In this document: positions 3,568 through 35,890 of the stretch, piece after piece
Layout: every line of letters starts with the position of its first letter
How positions within the stretch are numbered: position 1 is the first letter of the stretch
Source of the DNA: Blastocatellia bacterium
GTDB taxonomy: Bacteria; Acidobacteriota; Blastocatellia; UBA7656
Direction of reading: 5' to 3'
Assembly: GCA_036554605.1 (NCBI GenBank)
Contig: DATBMY010000447.1
Coordinates: 1 to 51,020, forward strand
Length of the DNA: 51,020 bases
Notes under the pieces: model-generated
What the model was told of the DNA's origin: nothing
Database searches by the model: none
What the model saw: only the letters and a program-made list of their open reading frames with translations
Made by a program: the position numbers and the translations under genes

Positions 3568-4668
3568 ATGCTCAGACGAGTCATACATAACTGGGAGCTT
3601 AAGCTTTCGCAAAAGGATAAGAACCGTATTGTCAGGCCGTTTGATTGGGGGATTGAACACCTCAGCCACGCATTCGCTAAATCAAGTGAGCCGGCCGCTA
3701 GCGCTGCTCATTACGGCGCCACACCGGGCGACGCCCGCGCGATAATCGCGGAATTCAATAATCGTGTTATAGCCGACTCTCACGAGTTCTTCGCCGCGCC
3801 GGCCGTGCGGGACTATTTGCTCGAAGGCGAGCTGCTAAAGTTCACAAGCGCCGTCCGCACCCCTTATGAAGAGAATAACACCGCTTATGGCCGTTACTTT
3901 CCGGTCCCGTCGCGCGAAGGCGGAACGGTAGGGGCGTCTTCTGACGAGGTTGAGCGCGCGCGCGGGCGGGCCGTCGTCGTGCTGCCTCACTGGAACGCGA
4001 AGTCGCAAGAGCACGTAGGGCTCTGCCGCATACTGAGCCGCGCAGGAATCGCGGCGCTCAGGATGACGCTCCCCTATCACGAACAGCGAACGCCTCCGGG
4101 ATTCGAGCGGGCCGATTGCATGGTGAGCGCAAATGTCGGGATGACGCTTCAATCCATGCGCCAGGCCGTGCTCGATACCCGCTCGGCCATAGATTGGCTC
4201 CAGTCGCGCGGCTATGATCGCATAGGGATAATCGGTACAAGCATCGGCTCCTGCATAGGGTTCCTGACCTTCATACACGAGAAGCGGCTGCGAACGGGCG
4301 TCTACAATCACGTCTCAAGCTATTTCGGCGATGTGGTGTGGCGAGGGATAACGACCGCGCACGTTAGAAAAGGGCTGGAGCAGGAATTGACGCGCGAAGA
4401 AGTTCGCCAGGTCTGGCTCTCAATCAGCCCGAACGCTTATATACACCGGCTTAGAAACGACCGGCGGCGCGCGCTTCTGATATCGGGCCGCTACGATCTT
4501 TCATTCACGCCCGATCTATCGCAGTTACTGTTCGAGGAGTGCGACAGGCAGGGGGTCGGACTCGACCGGAAACTTATACCTTGCGGTCATTACACGCTCG
4601 GTCGCGCGCCTTTCAGGTACTATGTAGGATACCTGATTGTGAGTTACCTGCTAAGGCGGCTCAAGTAA
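3568..4668 (+). CDS. alpha/beta-fold hydrolase
   Basis: 366-aa ORF with nucleophile elbow GTSIGS (GxSxG) in IGIIGTSIGSCIGF and a late conserved His in PCGHYTLG. Weak SD GAAGG. Confidence 0.8.
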   Translation: MLRRVIHNWELKLSQKDKNRIVRPFDWGIEHLSHAFAKSSEPAASAAHYGATPGDARAIIAEFNNRVIADSHEFFAAPAVRDYLLEGELLKFTSAVRTPYEENNTAYGRYFPVPSREGGTVGASSDEVERARGRAVVVLPHWNAKSQEHVGLCRILSRAGIAALRMTLPYHEQRTPPGFERADCMVSANVGMTLQSMRQAVLDTRSAIDWLQSRGYDRIGIIGTSIGSCIGFLTFIHEKRLRTGVYNHVSSYFGDVVWRGITTAHVRKGLEQELTREEVRQVWLSISPNAYIHRLRNDRRRALLISGRYDLSFTPDLSQLLFEECDRQGVGLDRKLIPCGHYTLGRAPFRYYVGYLIVSYLLRRLK

Positions 4669-12365: not shown

Positions 12366-12755
12366 TCAGCCCTCTTTGAAGCTCGAATTGTTACGTGAAA
12401 GGAGCGTCTTTATGCCCCCTATCAGCGTCTCGAACTCGACGGGCTTCGACGTGGCATAATCTGCGCCCATCTGTAATGCCTCGCTCGCCACGGCGCTCCC
12501 ATACGCCGTGATTGCCATAATAGGTATACTCTGTAACATCGGATGCTCGCGCAGAATTCTTATCATTTCGATGCCGTTGAGGTTCGGCATGTGTATGTCG
12601 GTTATTATCAGGTCGGGAAGCTCGGCTTCGGCGACTTCCAGACCAATCTGCCCGTCGCCGGCCGTAACGACCGAGTAAGATTCCATCTCTAAAAGCTTAG
12701 CCATCATCTCGCGAGTATCGTCGCTATCATCGACAACCAGGATCTTATCCGGCAC
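12366..12755 (-). CDS. stand-alone CheY-like response-regulator receiver
   Basis: ILVVDDSDD...LIITDIHMPNLNG...AITAY...KP signature. A GTG at 12755 with AAAGGA 7 nt upstream is preferred to the TTG at 12809. No output domain, and no kinase nearby. Confidence 0.85.
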   Translation of the reverse strand: MPDKILVVDDSDDTREMMAKLLEMESYSVVTAGDGQIGLEVAEAELPDLIITDIHMPNLNGIEMIRILREHPMLQSIPIMAITAYGSAVASEALQMGADYATSKPVEFETLIGGIKTLLSRNNSSFKEG

Positions 12756-13169
12756 AATCAGAATCCTTTCTGTAGCTTCTCTTCCACTGCATCTTTTTGC
12801 CCAAAGCAAGCGAGGGACATTGAGCCTGCCGGCGGCTTAATAAAATCGCGCTCCGTCGCCAAACATAAAAGAAGGCGCGTGAAGCTATAGTAATGAATCA
12901 ACATTTTAAACGCATCAGGAGACGTCGTTGCAGGGTAGGCGAAGCGGCAGATACTATGATATTTACTTTGACTGGATAAACAGCGGCTGTCGCAGGCTGC
13001 CGGCCATTGCGCTTCATCGCTTCTTTTAAATTCAGCGTCTGCGTTAATGCTGTGCTAGCACTGCTAAGGTTGTCCACTTCGGCTTCCCCCGTACACAAAG
13101 TAGCTCAACCTAAAGGGTGAGTGGATTATATTCGAAAGAGGCTTGAGTGTCTACGGAGGGAGCGATTTA

Positions 13170-13796
13170 CTATGCGGTTTGCTTGCGTCGCGACTTGTAG
13201 TCGGCCCACAGGCGGCAAACCTTGATCCTGTACTCAACAAGGTCGCGGCTGACGCGATAACGTCGGGCTATCAGTTCGGCGCTCTTGCCCGCTTCAACCG
13301 CGTGCTTTAGAGCGAAATAGGGGATTAAGGTGGCGGCGCCCACCGCATAAGCGACCTCTTCCTGGTTCTTGTCGAAATCGCGAAAGCGTACGCCCGCCGT
13401 CTCTTCAGCTATCATGAGCTTAGTTGGTGAGTGGCCCAAAATGACGTGGCAAATCTCCTCCATAAGCGTAGCGGCCTGGCGTTCGCGGGTGTGATTCGGA
13501 TTGAGGAAGACCAGTCGCGAGCCGTCGGGCAGGGGGCGGCTTGCCCCGCCCGACCAGCCCTTTCCGCTGTCTCCGAGCAGAACGCGCCTGCTTTCAGCCG
13601 ACAGCCCCTCGACCGACTTCAAATCCATAACCCGGATCTTCACATAGGGGGCTAGCTTCCAGGGGTCGAGGGGCTGATCGAGGGGCGTCGCCGCGAACTC
13701 TCGGATCTTTAGCGCAATGCGCTCGTAAACGCGCCGCTTCGCCGTCGGTGGTAGCATCTCTTCAATCGAGTGAACCTGACTTGCGTCGCTATTCAT
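13170..13796 (-). CDS. ImmA/IrrE-family (COG2856, peptidase M78-like) metallopeptidase with variant EExxH site
   Basis: ATLMEEICHVILGH aligns with the family motif (F/T)xxHELGHxxLH; the C-terminal helical part is LIARRYRVSRDLVEYRI. ATG 13796 overlaps the xre stop by 8 nt. The longer ORF to 13919 lies inside xre. Confidence 0.75.
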   Translation of the reverse strand: MNSDASQVHSIEEMLPPTAKRRVYERIALKIREFAATPLDQPLDPWKLAPYVKIRVMDLKSVEGLSAESRRVLLGDSGKGWSGGASRPLPDGSRLVFLNPNHTRERQAATLMEEICHVILGHSPTKLMIAEETAGVRFRDFDKNQEEVAYAVGAATLIPYFALKHAVEAGKSAELIARRYRVSRDLVEYRIKVCRLWADYKSRRKQTA

Positions 13797-14226
13797 TAGT
13801 GTCGGTCTGCGTCGTGTTGCCCTTATTGGAAAACTGCGTGTAGGCGACCCGGAACAACTCCGCCAGCGCCTTGGCCATATCCGGGTTGAGATTGCGGTCA
13901 GCCCGCAGGTGCGCTTCAACTATGCTCGGCGTCGATTCGGTCGGGAAATATATGACCGGCTCAACGTAAGCGGCCGCGCCGCGGAATTCCTTATCTTCCC
14001 CCAGCAGAGTCCCTCTCATCAATCGCTCAAGCGGGATACCTAGCCACGACGCGAGACGGGCAAGCGTCGCGCTGTCGGGCACCCCTATCCCGTTTTCGAT
14101 CCTTGAAAGAGTCGAGGCGCTCACATTTATCCTTGTTGCAACCTGACGCAACGACATCTTTTCATCCAGCCTTTTGCGTTTCACGTACTCACCCAACTCA
14201 ACGATATTTAGCGTAGCTTCTGTCAT
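13789..14226 (-). CDS. XRE-family HTH repressor (ImmR/DdrO-like architecture: HTH_3 + ~80-aa C-terminal domain)
   Basis: KRKRLDEKMSLRQVATRINVSASTLSRIENGIGVPDSATLARLASWLG. ATG 14226 is preceded by AAGGAGG. Confidence 0.85.
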   Translation of the reverse strand: MTEATLNIVELGEYVKRKRLDEKMSLRQVATRINVSASTLSRIENGIGVPDSATLARLASWLGIPLERLMRGTLLGEDKEFRGAAAYVEPVIYFPTESTPSIVEAHLRADRNLNPDMAKALAELFRVAYTQFSNKGNTTQTDTNE

Positions 14227-14259
14227 ATAAGGGTCGACCTCCTTAGACCTCTCGCTCCT

Positions 14260-14289
14260 GTATAACATAATTTGTGTCACGCTTGCAAC
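14260..14289 (-). promoter_or_regulatory. candidate xre promoter (TTGCAA-N17-TTATAC) overlapped by operator-like site O1 GTGTCACGCTTGCAAC (14274-14289)
   Basis: Hexamers and spacing read directly. O1 matches O2 at 12 of 16 positions. Confidence 0.45.
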
Positions 14290-14303
14290 GATTTATTTTA
14301 TCC

Positions 14304-14348
14304 TTGAAACAATCCGGAACCTCCGGTACAATGTTTCACGTATGAAAC
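14304..14348 (+). promoter_or_regulatory. candidate rightward promoter TTGAAA-N17-TACAAT with operator O2 GTTTCA-CGTA-TGAAAC (14333-14348) over the start site
   Basis: Near-consensus sigma70-type hexamers with a 17-nt spacer. The spacer contains the palindrome CCGGA-ACC-TCCGG (14314-14326). The TGAAAC half-site recurs in the -35 region. Confidence 0.5.
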
Positions 14349-14365
14349 AGCAGGAGGCGAGCAAG

Positions 14366-14539
14366 ATGCCTAACGGGTATTTAGGAGAGTTCGACCGGGA
14401 GCTGGAGTTCTGGGAAGGCTATGAATTCTGGTCAGCCCAGCTTGAAGCGAAGATGGAAGAGTGGGATGGTCCTGGGGCAGAGAAGCTGAAGATTGTCGAT
14501 TTCAGGCAAAGCGAGGGAAGTGATGTCCTCCCGTTTTGA
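14366..14539 (+). CDS. very acidic small protein (57 aa), unknown function
   Basis: ATG 14366 is preceded by AGGAGG 7 nt upstream. MPNGYLGEFDRELEFWEGYEFW... is rich in E/D/W. First gene of the rightward operon. Confidence 0.45.
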   Translation: MPNGYLGEFDRELEFWEGYEFWSAQLEAKMEEWDGPGAEKLKIVDFRQSEGSDVLPF

Positions 14540-14693
14540 TGAATTCTGGGACAGTTTCGACGCGCTCTGGCGCCGCATAGAGGTTCTAGGCCGCCGCGTA
14601 AAGGATTTGGAAGCGCGCCTGGAGTTTCTGGAGTCGCCCGGGGTGTTGGATAAGACTAAAAAGGAGCAACCGGCAGATGAGCGCAGCAATTGA
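14523..14693 (+). CDS. small coiled-coil protein (56 aa), unknown function
   Basis: ATG 14523 with SD GAGGGAAG; overlaps the previous ORF by 17 nt. Heptad-like segment RRIEVLGRRVKDLEARLEFLE. Confidence 0.45.
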   Translation: MSSRFDEFWDSFDALWRRIEVLGRRVKDLEARLEFLESPGVLDKTKKEQPADERSN

Positions 14694-15699
14694 AGATCCC
14701 AGCCTGGTTATAAATCGGGCAAAGACGATAGCCGCCATGGGTATGGTTGAGCGCGATTATGACGGGTTCAATGTCATTTCGCCCGGCGTGAAGAAAGAGA
14801 GCTTCCGCGTCTGGAAGGATGAAGAGGGTCGCGTGCAATGCAACTGCCCGCGGTTTGACGAGCTACGCGCGAATGATCCGCGATTTCGTTGCGAACACAT
14901 CCTGGCGGTGAAGTTTCACCTGGAGCCGCCTGACGAAGAGCCGATTGCGGTGACCGAGCCCGCAGGCGAAAAGCAGCCGCGACGAAAGTCGGCTCGTGCC
15001 GCCGCGGCTGAACTCTTTAACGAGGAGACGGACCATATTGAGTCAGGAGGTAAGCTAATCACCATGCCGTTTGCTGAAACTCTTAAAGAATTGTCGCAGG
15101 CCGTATCGCCTGAGTTGATAAAACAGCGCATCGGGTGGCGCGACCGCATGGGCCGCGAGCACGAGGTCGATTATGTCGAGTGGCACGTAGTCGCTGACTT
15201 GCTAGATAGGATCTGCCCGGACTGGTCGCACGAGGTTCTCTCTATCAAGCAGATAGGCGATTATGTCGCCGTGACCGCTTCTATAACCATACAGGGCGTG
15301 ACCCGGCAGGGCGTTGGGACCGGCTCCGCTTATGACGAGAAAGGGATCAAGAAGGCCGAGCACGATGCCTTGAAGCGGGCCGCGGTCAAGTTCGGCATCG
15401 CGCGTGAGCTTTATAGGCGCGAAGAGGAAGAGGCCACCGAGAAGCGCTCGGGCGGCGCGAGTGCCAAAGCTGATTTTCCACGCGAGCCTATAGCAAAAAC
15501 AATGGCCGATCTTGTGACTCCGAAACAGCTCGTCGCGATTCGGGCCATCGCCAGTGCGCAGGCTATTGACGCCGAGGCCGACTGTCTTGAGATGCTCAAG
15601 TGCCGGCCCGAAGAGTTGTCGCGGCGAGCAGCAAGCGCCTTTATCGATTATCTGAAATCGAAATCGGCGGGTGCGGAAGAGATACGCCACGCCGGATAG
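14677..15699 (+). CDS. SWIM zinc finger fused to a Rad52/Rad22/Sak-family single-strand annealing protein
   Basis: CNC-x16-CEH (aa 55-74) is the CxCxnCxH SWIM signature. Aa ~128-247 carry VDYVEWHVVADLLDRI...GVGTGSAYDEKGIKKAEHDALKRAAVKFGIARELY, the conserved end of the Rad52 annealase fold. SD AAAGGAG; 17-nt overlap with the previous ORF. Confidence 0.8.
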   Translation: MSAAIEDPSLVINRAKTIAAMGMVERDYDGFNVISPGVKKESFRVWKDEEGRVQCNCPRFDELRANDPRFRCEHILAVKFHLEPPDEEPIAVTEPAGEKQPRRKSARAAAAELFNEETDHIESGGKLITMPFAETLKELSQAVSPELIKQRIGWRDRMGREHEVDYVEWHVVADLLDRICPDWSHEVLSIKQIGDYVAVTASITIQGVTRQGVGTGSAYDEKGIKKAEHDALKRAAVKFGIARELYRREEEEATEKRSGGASAKADFPREPIAKTMADLVTPKQLVAIRAIASAQAIDAEADCLEMLKCRPEELSRRAASAFIDYLKSKSAGAEEIRHAG

Positions 15700-15744
15700 G
15701 CAATCTTTCGGAAGCGCGCTCGTTAGTAGTGAGGAGGAAGTAAG

Positions 15745-16239
15745 ATGCAGCAACATGAAATCGTATTTGAGCAGATGTCCGGTATGCCGGCCGTCACAAG
15801 CTCCGAGGCTCGCAAGCCTCGCAAACCGCGCGCTCCACGTAAGGATTCGAAAAAGAGCCGGATTCTTGACCTCTACCGCGGCGGTCTAACCGATCTCGGC
15901 GAGATTGCAAGAAATGTGAAGACGCGCCCGAGCTATGTGGCCGGTGTGCTTCAAAACGCGGGACTCATTCATGGCTACTTTGATCTCTACACCACCACGG
16001 CGAGAGATCAGAACCTGTATAGCCGGTTCTTTCGCAATAAATTGAGCTTCAAGTCTATTGAAGCGGCCAAAGAATCGGTTGCGCAGATCGCGCGACTTTA
16101 CGAATACTTCGAGCGCATTGGCGACCGCGCCGGCCAGCATCATGCCGAGGTGCTTGCGCTGACGGGCCGCAATCGCGCTCGCTTCAGCGGGAAGAAAGAA
16201 GAGTCGAAGGTATTCGAAGAGTGGCTGTTCAACCACTGA
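15745..16239 (+). CDS. hypothetical protein with basic N-terminus and possible wHTH (164 aa)
   Basis: Strong SD GAGGAGG. KPRKPRAPRKDSKKSRILDLYRGGLTDLGEIARNVKTRPSYVAGVL looks like a short HTH. No family recognised. Confidence 0.6.
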   Translation: MQQHEIVFEQMSGMPAVTSSEARKPRKPRAPRKDSKKSRILDLYRGGLTDLGEIARNVKTRPSYVAGVLQNAGLIHGYFDLYTTTARDQNLYSRFFRNKLSFKSIEAAKESVAQIARLYEYFERIGDRAGQHHAEVLALTGRNRARFSGKKEESKVFEEWLFNH

Positions 16240-16260
16240 AAGAGAGAATAGGCGAGCTAG

Positions 16261-16295
16261 AAGGACAGTCTCGGCGGGCTGTCCTTATTTTTTTT
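16261..16295. terminator. intrinsic terminator AAGGACAG-N10-CTGTCCTT + T8, shared by convergent genes
   Basis: 8-bp stem and a T8 run read directly. The T-run overlaps the stop region of the minus-strand amidohydrolase gene. Confidence 0.75.
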
Positions 16296-21995: not shown

Positions 21996-22469
21996 ATGCT
22001 TAAACTCCTAAAAAGATTATGGCGGCGGCCACGGCGGGCGCGCGCGGCGCACCTGCTGCTTGGAGAGCGAGGCGAGCGCGCGGCGCTTGAGTATCTCGCG
22101 ATTGAAGAAGGATACAGAATTGTCGCAACAAACTTCCGCGTGCCGATAGGACGAGCAATCAGCGGCCAAAAGATAACGGCCGAAATAGACATCATCGCCT
22201 ACGATGAAGATACGCTCGTCTTCGCGGAAGTAAAGACTCGAACTTCAGACGAGATGGTCGGGCCTGAGCGCGCGGTCGATTTGCGAAAGCAGAGACAGAT
22301 CGCTCGCGCCGCCCGCCGCTACCGGCAGTTGATGAGCATACAGGCTGAAGCCTACCGCTACGACGTGGTGACGGTCATAGCGCGCGCGGAAGGAGAGAGC
22401 ATTGAGCTTCTGCGCGGTTTCTTTGATGATACGGTTTTTTTGCGCGGGCGCTTCTTCAATAAAGAATAG
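21996..22469 (+). CDS. yraN: YraN-family (UPF0102) endonuclease-like protein
   Basis: GERGERAALEYL...EIDIIAYDEDTLVFAEVKTR...YRYDVV pattern. Confidence 0.82.
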   Translation: MLKLLKRLWRRPRRARAAHLLLGERGERAALEYLAIEEGYRIVATNFRVPIGRAISGQKITAEIDIIAYDEDTLVFAEVKTRTSDEMVGPERAVDLRKQRQIARAARRYRQLMSIQAEAYRYDVVTVIARAEGESIELLRGFFDDTVFLRGRFFNKE

Positions 22470-34640: not shown

Positions 34641-35111
34641 AAAATCTCCGGCTGTTTGCGCTGGGAAATCCAAGAGGGGCAGAAACTAGCGCAAGAATAA
34701 CCCAGGTGGGCACAGGGCGCAATAGTAAAGCTCAAACAGCCAGGGCAATTGCAAAGTAGCACTACCGGCGTAAAAACGAGGTTCAGCGCCTCAACCCGAT
34801 AGGCACTATACTTTCTCCTTGCCCCTGCCAGATTCCTGATCCCTTGCTTTAACACCAACCCGGTAATCAAATTGTTGATCACTTCCATCACCTGCGCTGC
34901 TTCTCCTCTCTTCAATCGGCAAGCATCCTCTCAGTATCAAAGATAAAAGGGTCGGATTATTTCTCTACCGAGAAGCTTGCGATGTTATGCTTCATCTAAG
35001 ACCTTCCTCCGGTTCTGTTTTGTACTACTTTTGATCTTGAACCGAGGTAGGTCTTTTCTTTTCAATTGGCAAGCGACTTTGCTGGAACCCTGTATGGCGG
35101 CGATGAATGAG

Positions 35112-35150
35112 AAGGCGCGAGAGTATCATGCTTGATACTCTCGCGCCCTT
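35112..35150 (-). terminator. hairpin with 15-bp perfect stem (GGCGCGAGAGTATCA-TGCT-TGATACTCTCGCGCC) after the EF-hand gene
   Basis: Read directly; 36 nt downstream of the stop at 35186. Only a modest U-tract on the minus strand. Confidence 0.6.
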
Positions 35151-35185: not shown

Positions 35186-35890
35186 TTACTGGGGCTGGCC
35201 CTCTTTCTTCGCTTTCGCCCTCTCGGCCATCTGCCGAACGGCCGTGCCCGCCTCGTCGCGCGTCACCGAGCCGTCCTTGTTGAGATCCAGGCCCTTGAAT
35301 GCGCGCTCATTGCCCATCTCTTCGGCGGTTATCTTTCCGTCTTTATCCTTGTCGTACTTGGCAAAAAGATTCGCCACTTCGACGCCCCCCGTGGCCTGGC
35401 TGTGCGCTTCGTTGACGGCCTGGAAGAAACGGTTCATCTCTTCCTGAGTCAGCTCGCCATCTTTATTCTGGTCGAGTTGATCGAAGACCTCGGCGAGCTT
35501 TGCGAATTCCTCGCGCGTGACTTTGCCGCTGTTGTCGGAGTCGAGGTATTTGCTGAGGGTCTCGCCGAAACGCGGCCCGCGAAATTCCGTGCGCCCGCCG
35601 CGCATGCGATTGAACTCTTCTTCGTCGACAGAGCCGTCCTTGTTTTCGTCGAGACGGTCAAAGAATTGCGGCGGCATCTGAGAAGGGAACTCGTCGCGGG
35701 TGAGTTTCTTGTCCTTGTTCTTATCCAGATCGGCGAAGGTGGGCATCTGCATCTGCATCCTCATGCCACCCGGCCCGCCCGGTCCCGCCCCCGGAGGCGG
35801 CATCTGGGGCGGATGGTCCTGCGCCCGCGCCGCGCCCGCCCCGGCAAGCATTACGCTCGTTAGAAACATCAATGCGAAAAACTTCTTCAT
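35186..35890 (-). CDS. secreted calcium-binding protein with six EF-hand loops
   Basis: Signal peptide, then DLDKNKDKKLTRDEF, DENKDGSVDEEEF, DSDNSGKVTREEF, DQNKDGELTQEEM, DKDKDGKITAEEM and DLNKDGSVTRDEA (DxDxDG-type loops). SD GAGGAAG. Confidence 0.88.
   Translation of the reverse strand: MKKFFALMFLTSVMLAGAGAARAQDHPPQMPPPGAGPGGPGGMRMQMQMPTFADLDKNKDKKLTRDEFPSQMPPQFFDRLDENKDGSVDEEEFNRMRGGRTEFRGPRFGETLSKYLDSDNSGKVTREEFAKLAEVFDQLDQNKDGELTQEEMNRFFQAVNEAHSQATGGVEVANLFAKYDKDKDGKITAEEMGNERAFKGLDLNKDGSVTRDEAGTAVRQMAERAKAKKEGQPQ

Follow-up and report, generated by a model that had tools for sequence, protein, structure and literature searches.

The DNA analysed here is a 51-kb stretch (the window; 51,020 nucleotides of contig DATBMY010000447.1) from a Blastocatellia bacterium. 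At positions 13170-16295 it carries a six-gene module, in which genes for a putative repressor and a peptidase-like protein face an operon for a Rad52-like annealase. Gene limits and gaps were taken from a list of open reading frames (ORFs) and from the sequence. The minus strand carries an XRE-family repressor gene (xre, 13789-14226, 145 aa; PF01381 HTH_3, E=8e-15) and a gene for an M78/COG2856 peptidase-like protein (13170-13796, 208 aa; PF06114 Peptidase_M78, E=1.5e-16), which overlap by 8 nt. A gap of 139 bp separates xre from the divergent operon on the plus strand. The operon encodes C, a small acidic protein of 57 aa (14366-14539), D, a small helical or coiled-coil protein of 55 aa (14526-14693), E, a SWIM::Rad52 annealase-like protein of 340 aa (14677-15699; Pfam Rad52_Rad22, PF04098, E=8e-13), and F, an orphan all-alpha protein of 164 aa (15745-16239). 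It ends at an intrinsic terminator on the plus strand (16261-16295) with an 11-bp stem, a 4-nt loop and a T-run, and the T-tract runs into the 3' end of a convergent amidohydrolase gene. Shine-Dalgarno sequences were read by eye ahead of C, D, E, F and xre.

An earlier reading of the window, made without database searches (the sequence-only reading), had described the XRE/M78 pair with its 8-nt overlap, the 139-bp gap, the divergent operon, the Shine-Dalgarno sequences and the terminator, and all of these were present. The acidic 57-aa C, the 340-aa E and the 164-aa F were likewise found as described, and Pfam supported the proposed M78, HTH_3 and Rad52 assignments. An overlap of 17 nt had been given for the first two junctions of the operon. 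This value was obtained for D and E; C and D overlap by 14 nt, because alignments of orthologues set the start of D at the ATG at 14526. D kept its coiled coil and is 55 aa long by the same alignments, instead of 56 aa. The ORF of C is open in 15 of the related loci described below, and D is conserved in 14. In all six genes variation is highest at codon position 3, followed by position 1 and then position 2, which is a coding pattern. No family was found for C, D or F in Pfam, PHROGs, PADLOC or NCBIfam, the M78 protein had no match in NCBIfam, and an Rfam search of the window gave no match.

The intergenic regions from 16 species were aligned to give a footprint of the space between the two transcription units. 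The consensus scan found an operon promoter on the plus strand at 14304-14332 (TTGAAA, 17 nt, TACAAT; 10 of 12 consensus matches), and both hexamers are conserved in the 16 species. The main operator, O1 (14332-14349), has the sequence TGTTTCA-CGTA-TGAAACA with perfect inverted arms of 7 bp and a 4-bp spacer, and is nearly invariant in the 16 species. It begins on the last base of the -10 hexamer and spans the expected transcription start, so that the footprint reads CTTGAAACA (-35), 17 nt, TACAAT (-10) and then directly O1. No second copy of O1 was found in the window when up to 3 mismatches were allowed, and each related locus has a single copy.

The likely xre promoter on the minus strand (14259-14288) was read by eye as a -35 element TTGCAA (14288-14283), an 18-nt spacer and a TGn-extended -10 element TATACA (14264-14259). 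Both elements fall within stretches conserved in the 16 species; the consensus scan missed this promoter because its -10 does not end in T. O2 (14274-14289, GTGTCA-cgct-TGCAAC), a weaker copy of the operator, has two arm mismatches in an arms-only scan and lies over the -35 and the spacer of the xre promoter. It is present as GTATCA-N4-TGCAAC in most of the 16 loci, and a recA box (L152) has the TGCAAC arm variant as well. From this position O2 is predicted to be an autoregulation site. A degenerate site, O3 (14295-14310, ATTTTA-tcct-TGAAAC), shares its right half CTTGAAACA with the operon -35; the half-site occurs as CTTGAAACA or CTTGCAACA in 16 of 16 loci, and O3 is weak as an operator. Between the two promoters lies a conserved AT-rich element, TTTATTTTA (14292-14300). 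As in the COG2856(M78)/XRE repressor-peptidase pairs (ImmR/ImmA, DdrO/IrrE, CapH/CapP), the divergent promoters carry a palindromic operator to which the repressor is predicted to bind, including the site of predicted autoregulation.

Two other candidate sites in the window were rejected. The site at 22417 has 2 mismatches and no supporting context, and that at 35123 (GTATCA-TGCT-TGATAC) forms the loop of a terminator hairpin that follows an EF-hand gene. This hairpin (35109-35142, GGCGCGAGAGTATCA-tgct-TGATACTCTCGCGCC) is long and perfect and lies downstream of the gene for the 234-aa EF-hand protein (35186-35890, minus strand). Despite its box-like loop, it is a terminator-like structure with no relation to the box.

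A metagenome collection was scanned for the exact 18-mer with the module's own -10 context excluded, and 46 loci were returned. When the flanking ORFs were compared, 25 of the 46 exact sites lay 3-91 bp upstream of the relevant start codon; this is a raw count, with no formal chance expectation for an 18-mer as the size of the collection is not given. The gene downstream was recA at 19 of these sites and an F homologue (49-50% identical) at two (L041 and L050). One site each preceded a gene for an XRE homologue (50% identical; L058), for a Rad52 protein of 147 aa without SWIM, uvrB and ruvA. The lone XRE homologue has two boxes upstream and the same C-terminal motif as the protein of the window, with no adjacent M78 gene. 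The RecA proteins are those of Pyrinomonadaceae/Acidobacteriota, their named relatives being 86-90% identical, and one cluster of F homologues includes a Pyrinomonadaceae member. The remaining 21 sites, about a dozen distinct sequences, lay inside ORFs, in Woesebacteria of the candidate phyla radiation (CPR), Bacillota, Bacteroidaceae or a lineage with a G+C content of 0.66, or on contigs with no taxon assigned. Exact 18-mers by nrdR (CPR Woesebacteria), dnaA (Bacteroidaceae), phosphoenolpyruvate (PEP)-mutase genes (Bacillota) and a TetR gene (G+C 0.66), as well as those in ORFs, were set aside as background or unrelated.

For an independent test, recA loci were picked by protein identity alone, which gave six distinct RecA proteins in nine places. 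All nine places, and so all six RecA proteins, had GTTTCA-N4-TGAAAC or a one-mismatch variant of it at -90 to -95, and the spacers were all different. The G+C content of the recA contigs was 0.41-0.52, and that of the six loci picked by protein identity 0.42-0.49. Genes of the module that are dispersed in other contigs each keep a box of their own (L041, L050, L058, L062, L071). The lone Rad52 gene of L071 (G+C 0.68) has two boxes, one of which abuts a -10-like element as in the window, and four copies of the box are present in the intergenic region of a distant module, L069.

Several further observations were made at these sites. In L069, the expanded linker of the gene for a 408-aa Rad52 protein (P0116, G+C 0.34) contains four more perfect-arm boxes at 4373-4496 with an exact spacing of 36 bp. 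They are in frame and encode VS(P/S)MKQ-type repeats, and they could be an operator array, acting as roadblock or repressor sink, or a by-product of the repeat expansion. The 18-mer near nrdR (L026:10942-10959, and the identical contigs L033 and L060; Candidatus Woesebacteria, G+C 0.38) lies about 10 bp upstream of that gene, which is followed by a ribonucleotide reductase gene; it may be a coincidence or belong to a related regulator. In L044 (1425-1460) and L051 the 18-mer stands between two divergent PEP-mutase/isocitrate-lyase-like genes, assigned by eye. At the L044 site an extra CTTGAAACA half-site lies 4 bp upstream and a Ku gene about 3 kb downstream, and the contig was assigned to Bacillota, Ca. 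Fermentithermobacillaceae, through the cluster of the Ku protein.

The upstream regions of the recA genes (L017-L059, L063-L068, L152-L154) share a second conserved element, ATTTCACAAA(C/T)GC, directly after the box, and a conserved TTTTCCACTAA(n)TT about 60 bp upstream. Tyrosine-integrase genes were found 1-2 kb downstream of recA in two Pyrinomonadaceae-type contigs (L063:5070-6245 and L066:5017-6168), and a type I restriction gene at the same place in their sister contigs L064 and L065. The region downstream of recA may be an integration hotspot.

A variable linker joins the N-terminal helix-turn-helix (HTH) domain of the XRE protein to its conserved C-terminal segment, PVIYFPTES.P.IVEAHLRADRNL.P.MAKALAELFRVAY.QF, which can also be written PVIYFP...VEAHLRADRNL...MAKALAELFRVAY.QF. 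When a profile of the protein was compared with the PDB, DdrO (6JQ1, 6RNX) was among the best matches with E~4e-5, over HTH residues 10-78 only. In the M78 protein Pfam finds only the M78 domain (residues 84-192), and the protein has the size of ImmA, without a GAF or HTH-like domain. It had been called an ImmA/IrrE-like peptidase in the sequence-only reading. The family assignment was borne out; the canonical motif was not, as EEICH stands where HExxH was expected. The metal site reads E113-E114-I-C-H117, with H122 and E146/E147 further along the chain, and does not vary among the 16 species. The catalytic Glu is retained, as are the second His and the downstream Glu (E146/E147).

When 1.84 billion representative proteins were searched with the M78 protein, 285 clusters were obtained at E<=1e-10, and the metal motif was read in the best 150. 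EExxH was present in 132 of these and HExxH in 12. Because 132 of the 150 nearest clusters share the motif, the EExxH proteins make up a conserved subfamily, of which the window protein is a member rather than a decayed copy. Long forms account for nine of the 150 clusters, and Pfam, applied to two of the nine, identified them as fusions of HTH_3 and M78. The sequence AHLRA stands right after the HTH in three of the nine long forms and in none of the 141 short forms. Such "Rosetta-stone" fusions support a direct partnership of the XRE and M78 proteins of the window, and they single out AHLRA as the segment that the peptidase would recognise. In the fusions P0409, P0414 and P0417 (311-328 aa) the XRE HTH, the AHLRA segment and the EExxH M78 domain are joined in one chain, and these proteins could be self-cleaving regulators similar to LexA.

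The syntenic comparison comprised 16 loci from GTDB species representatives of Blastocatellia. In all 16 species the block is flanked identically, with genes for a response regulator, a secreted protein and a TPR/GT39-like protein on one side and for an amidohydrolase, an aldehyde dehydrogenase (ALDH) and an M28 peptidase on the other (Pfam assignments). Identity to the window proteins in 15 loci was 67-92% for M78, 77-96% for XRE, 62-84% for E and 66-88% for F, a range comparable to that of the flanks (amidohydrolase 79-93%, ALDH 75-89%). C and D diverge faster, yet their reading frames are intact and their cores conserved. The M78/XRE pairing is retained in the 15 syntenic loci and in two distant ones. 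In these distant modules (L069, G+C 0.34, and L070, G+C 0.48) M78-XRE stands opposite Rad52-F in different neighbourhoods, and E is 54-57% identical. C or D may be missing there; L070 has D and lacks C. No integrase lies beside either module.

Within the window there is no tRNA gene, no flanking or att-like direct repeat and no deviation in G+C content, and the module and its neighbours leave no room for an integrase or other genes and include no structural gene. A tblastn search with E against the INPHARED phages gave no match. The perfect-arm box is absent from 80 viral loci (845 kb), where only about 0.1 would be expected by chance, and the viral loci closest to E have no box and no homologue of XRE, M78 or F. 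Judged from sequence, the block is a vertically inherited core chromosomal unit and not a mobile element, because it is syntenic in 16 species, is conserved to the same degree as its flanks and shows no tRNA genes, repeats or G+C anomaly. The proposal of an integrase-less XRE/M78 switch opposite a Rad52 annealase operon, amid ordinary chromosomal genes, was confirmed in this comparison: the six genes are kept as a unit in 16 species without integrase or att site, and homologous blocks are not always embedded in complete prophages or integrative and conjugative elements (ICEs).

In two of the syntenic loci (L010, L011) a 1.6-kb insert follows F. It carries a beta-lactamase-like gene on the other strand and was regarded as unrelated. 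Just downstream of the M78 stop codon in the window, a promoter-like site (13125-13153, minus strand; TAGACA, 17 nt, TATAAT; 11 of 12 consensus matches) is directed at the response-regulator gene (12366-12809). The 360-bp gap by this gene also holds a 66-aa ORF of doubtful reality.

In E a SWIM domain (residues 8-82, approximately) is joined by a disordered linker to a Rad52 core (132-238), which is followed by a C-terminal module of three helices (282-332) with the motif VTPKQLVAIRAIA...PEELSRRAASAFID.LK. The cysteines and the histidine of the SWIM domain (C55, C57, C72, H74; CxC...CxH) are invariant in 38 homologues. In Pfam the N-terminal domain alone scored 21.7 bits, above the SWIM cut-off of 19.6, and full-length E 19.3 bits, slightly short of it. 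The SWIM assignment made earlier was borne out by the isolated domain. The AlphaFold2 (AF2) model of E (pLDDT 79.8) has three confident domains joined by disordered linkers, and in it strands at 184-217 are followed by a helix at 221-238. A Foldseek search matched human RAD52 (8bjm, E=5e-6; 8rjw, 2.6e-5) and yeast Mgm101 (1e-4), and the match in PHROGs was "Erf-like/SSAP". E as modelled has the Rad52 fold, a DNA-binding fold with a beta-beta-beta-alpha core, as the sequence-only reading had supposed, and by analogy it would anneal or protect the ends of single-stranded DNA (ssDNA). Among 3013 homologues of E, all named ones belong to Blastocatellia or to metagenome-assembled genomes of Acidobacteria. 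The 76-residue C-terminal module had no match in Pfam, and the viral homologues of E correspond to the core only, with 27-41% identity.

One phage contig (L072:3291-6918) encodes a Rad52 protein of 362 aa without SWIM, in which a C-terminal module of the type "TxKQ...ELS.K.AS.FI..L" occurs twice. It is the same module as in E, at 46% identity. A separate 124-aa ORF with a SWIM-like CxC...CxH motif lies 2 kb upstream of this Rad52 gene. The arrangement could represent the ancestral, unfused state of E and hints at an old phage origin.

The N-terminus of F is basic and disordered; the AF2 model (pLDDT 73.5) further shows an HTH-like unit of three helices (36-71) and a helical bundle. The motifs GYFDLYTTT and DRAGQHHAE of F are invariant. 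Its 1413 homologues are all annotated as "hypothetical" and belong to no Pfam family, and the named ones are all from Blastocatellia or Acidobacteria. A comparison of the F model with the PDB and BFVD gave no structural match at E<=0.001. C has a conserved core, W.GYEFWSAQLEAE, and a near-invariant C-terminal SDVLPF. The codons of this C-terminus (14519-14539) double, in a second frame, as the start of D, and both frames constrain them. The C-terminal tip of the bacterial single-stranded DNA-binding protein (SSB) is DDDIPF. SDVLPF appears to resemble this tail tip, and by analogy C may compete for or recruit the partners of the SSB tail. The core of D is EEVWESFDALWRR...LSRQV.ELEARL; D overlaps the start of E by 17 nt.

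Taken together, these results suggest, with a probability of about 0.6, that the XRE/M78 pair is a chromosomal repressor and anti-repressor of the same kind as ImmR/ImmA, DdrO/IrrE and CapH/CapP which forms the switch of a DNA-damage response in Blastocatellia and runs a multi-locus regulon. By analogy the response is probably independent of LexA, and it probably also covers desiccation. A dimer of XRE would bind the GTTTCA-N4-TGAAAC boxes, namely the perfect O1 on the -10/+1 region of the operon and the weaker O2 on the xre promoter. The anatomy and conservation of the sites point to tight repression of C-D-E-F and milder autorepression of xre-M78. XRE is the obvious binder of the box, because it is encoded beside the box in every module, has a weaker box of its own and has a lone homologue with two boxes. 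DdrO was first identified by the same kind of argument (PMC1978522). As the operator also lies upstream of recA, uvrB, ruvA, Rad52, F and a lone XRE gene, the pair most likely runs a multi-locus regulon, in which the adjacent operon is most likely the best-repressed member. The box stands at these genes in sister lineages, and by extension the pair would control such a regulon in the present organism.

After DNA damage, M78 would inactivate XRE through the C-terminal segment around AHLRAD, by cleavage or only by binding; this step is proposed by analogy and from the natural HTH-M78 fusions. IrrE, ImmA and CapP cleave their repressors. Rir/Crh acts without cleavage (PMC6868357), and by analogy both cleavage and sequestration of XRE would fit. 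Derepression would then supply SWIM::Rad52, which may anneal or protect ssDNA ends as DdrA and Rad52 do, together with the putative accessory proteins C (perhaps through SSB-tail partners), D and the HTH-like F. Of the three functions considered in the sequence-only reading, a LexA-independent repair cassette comparable to DdrO/IrrE with DdrA fits best.

Several points speak against this interpretation. The recA, uvrB and ruvA sites come from sister lineages and not from this genome, no taxon could be assigned to the contigs with uvrB, ruvA and the lone XRE gene, and the box was seen at the module only, both across the window and across the 16 syntenic loci. The exact 18-mer also arises by chance at this scale, as some 21 of the 46 sites fall within genes or in taxa that are unrelated. 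In profile searches the C-terminal segment of XRE had no match to the C-terminal domain of DdrO at the sequence level, and single-sequence and profile searches with the M78 protein found no relative in the PDB, not even IrrE. Proteolysis is not assured, because the first zinc-binding His of HExxH is a Glu here. Induction, binding and cleavage are all predictions.

The occurrence of the box only in the intergenic region of the module, both in the window and in the 16 syntenic loci, would also fit a local, self-contained switch, in which XRE/M78 controls just the adjacent Rad52 operon and itself and the boxes elsewhere are a feature of other lineages. All the recA evidence being from Pyrinomonadaceae-type contigs of lower G+C content agrees with this. 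However, the count covers only about 1% of each genome, the repressor and the box are highly conserved across lineages from G+C 0.34 to 0.68, and the dispersed genes each keep their own box. This explanation is considered unlikely, and the description of the module as self-contained in the sequence-only reading was given up, as the same operator precedes recA, uvrB, ruvA, separate Rad52 and F genes and a lone XRE homologue in other contigs.

An anti-phage or abortive-infection system, with a damage sensor of the CapH/CapP type driving a defence operon and E and F as effectors, is quite improbable. Pairs of the CapH/CapP kind are indeed placed upstream of many defence operons, in divergent orientation, and are responsive to DNA damage (bioRxiv 10.1101/2022.04.27.489752), the XRE protein weakly matches the PADLOC models capH and RmrA, and C, D and F have no assigned function. 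Yet the PADLOC matches are only those of generic HTH/M78 regulators, with none significant for C, D, E or F, and the fixed locus and vertical inheritance in 16 species differ from patchy defence islands. The operator is moreover common to recA, uvrB and ruvA, and E has the fold of a repair annealase. The satellite-like element considered earlier is disfavoured along with the anti-phage option by the strict synteny, the identity equal to that of the flanks and the lack of a PADLOC model for E and F. A decayed prophage or ICE remnant, consisting of an immunity region and a recombination module with no host function of its own, has even less in its favour. Phage early regions typically carry XRE/M78 immunity pairs and Rad52/Sak annealases, in line with the PHROG matches, and the phage contig with the C-terminal module of E (46%) and a separate SWIM-like ORF makes an ancient phage origin plausible. 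Against a remnant stand the absence of integrase, att site, tRNA gene and structural gene, the same insertion context in 16 species at an identity equal to that of housekeeping flanks, the coding pattern of variation in all six genes, and the lack of both an INPHARED match and a box in the 845 kb of viral loci. The lowest probability was given to a toxin-antitoxin (TA)-like COG2856/XRE module lying by chance beside unrelated genes. Such pairs have been described in these terms, for example in Brucella (PMC10538038); here, however, the divergent operon has the operator on its promoter, pair and operon are co-inherited even in the distant loci with other neighbours (L069, L070), and the box is also found at repair genes.

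A wider reading is possible and is put forward tentatively. In Blastocatellia, and perhaps in the wider Acidobacteriota, the whole response to DNA damage and desiccation may be under a non-LexA repressor, which an atypical M78 protein with EExxH would inactivate. This would be a second instance of the Deinococcus type, probably assembled independently, with SWIM::Rad52, C as a mimic of the SSB tail, D as a coiled-coil partner and F as new repair factors. In the literature, COG2856/XRE-controlled repair regulons were found for Deinococcus only, and no prior description was found for the combinations of Acidobacteria with IrrE and DdrO or with Rad52 and SWIM, for the box itself or for SOS motifs of Acidobacteria. 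Outside Deinococcus, COG2856/XRE pairs have been described in phages, ICEs, defence operons and TA-like modules (PMC6868357; bioRxiv 10.1101/2022.04.27.489752). If the proposed regulon is real, the XRE/M78 logic is a general alternative to LexA, and a testable operator and regulon become available for a dominant and poorly studied soil phylum. New repair proteins (C, D, F and SWIM::Rad52) would also be indicated, along with an M78 subfamily whose metal site is altered. Acidobacteriota are abundant in arid soils, and the regulon would bear on the desiccation survival of desert-soil members.

Among known systems, DdrO/IrrE (PprI) of Deinococcus is similar in combining an XRE repressor with a COG2856/M78 protein, in a control that is presumably independent of SOS and in a palindromic box at the promoters of a regulon, the repressor's own included (PMC5552922, PMC6868357). 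The radiation and desiccation response (RDR) regulon of Deinococcus contains recA, uvrA/B, ruvB, the Rad52-family gene ddrA in an operon with a small ORF, a gene for a SWIM-domain protein and ddrO (PMC5552922). The gene set predicted here (recA, uvrB, a ruv gene, Rad52, SWIM), drawn from related lineages, overlaps with it. The box, in contrast, is GTTTCA-N4-TGAAAC and not the 17-bp RDR motif (RDRM) TTMTGT-N5-ACAKAA (PMC1978522). The peptidase of 208 aa has no HTH-linker or GAF domain, carries EExxH and shows no detectable sequence relation to IrrE, and the C-terminal domain of the repressor is unrelated in sequence to that of DdrO. Here the overlapping genes adjoin their predicted target operon, but in Deinococcus irrE and ddrO are not linked. 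The SWIM and Rad52 domains form one protein, no Deinococcus counterpart of C, D or F was detected, and the phylum is another one. In the strict sense the pair shares with DdrO/IrrE the regulon content, as read in related lineages, and departs from it in the IrrE architecture, the C-terminal domain of DdrO and the RDRM.

ImmR/ImmA of ICEBs1 and phage phi105 likewise consists of a small HTH repressor and a small single-domain M78 peptidase, encoded together and divergent from their targets. The present locus differs in having no integrase, excisionase or conjugation genes, in being fixed in 16 species and in having repair genes as its predicted targets. CapH/CapP shares the divergent layout, responds to damage and is known to occur as fusion proteins, comparable to the HTH-M78 fusions found here. 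CapP, however, is built of peptidase, HTH-like and GAF domains with HExxH and, in part of the family, a cysteine-switch loop, and it targets immune operons; the predicted targets here are repair genes, and PADLOC finds no defence protein. Work on CapH/CapP places pairs of this kind in one damage-responsive family (bioRxiv 10.1101/2022.04.27.489752), and DdiA, a regulator with XRE only, is known in Myxococcus. With DdrA and the phage Sak/Rad52 annealases E shares the Rad52 core and, with ddrA, presumably the control by a damage regulon; it differs in its N-terminal SWIM domain and its additional three-helix C-terminal module, and has no partner exonuclease. The LexA/RecA SOS system follows the same regulatory logic, with a repressor box at recA, uvrB, ruvA and the gene of the repressor itself. 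In the present system the repressor is an XRE HTH protein, and its inactivation would be expected from a separate peptidase, in contrast to the RecA-stimulated self-cleavage of LexA.

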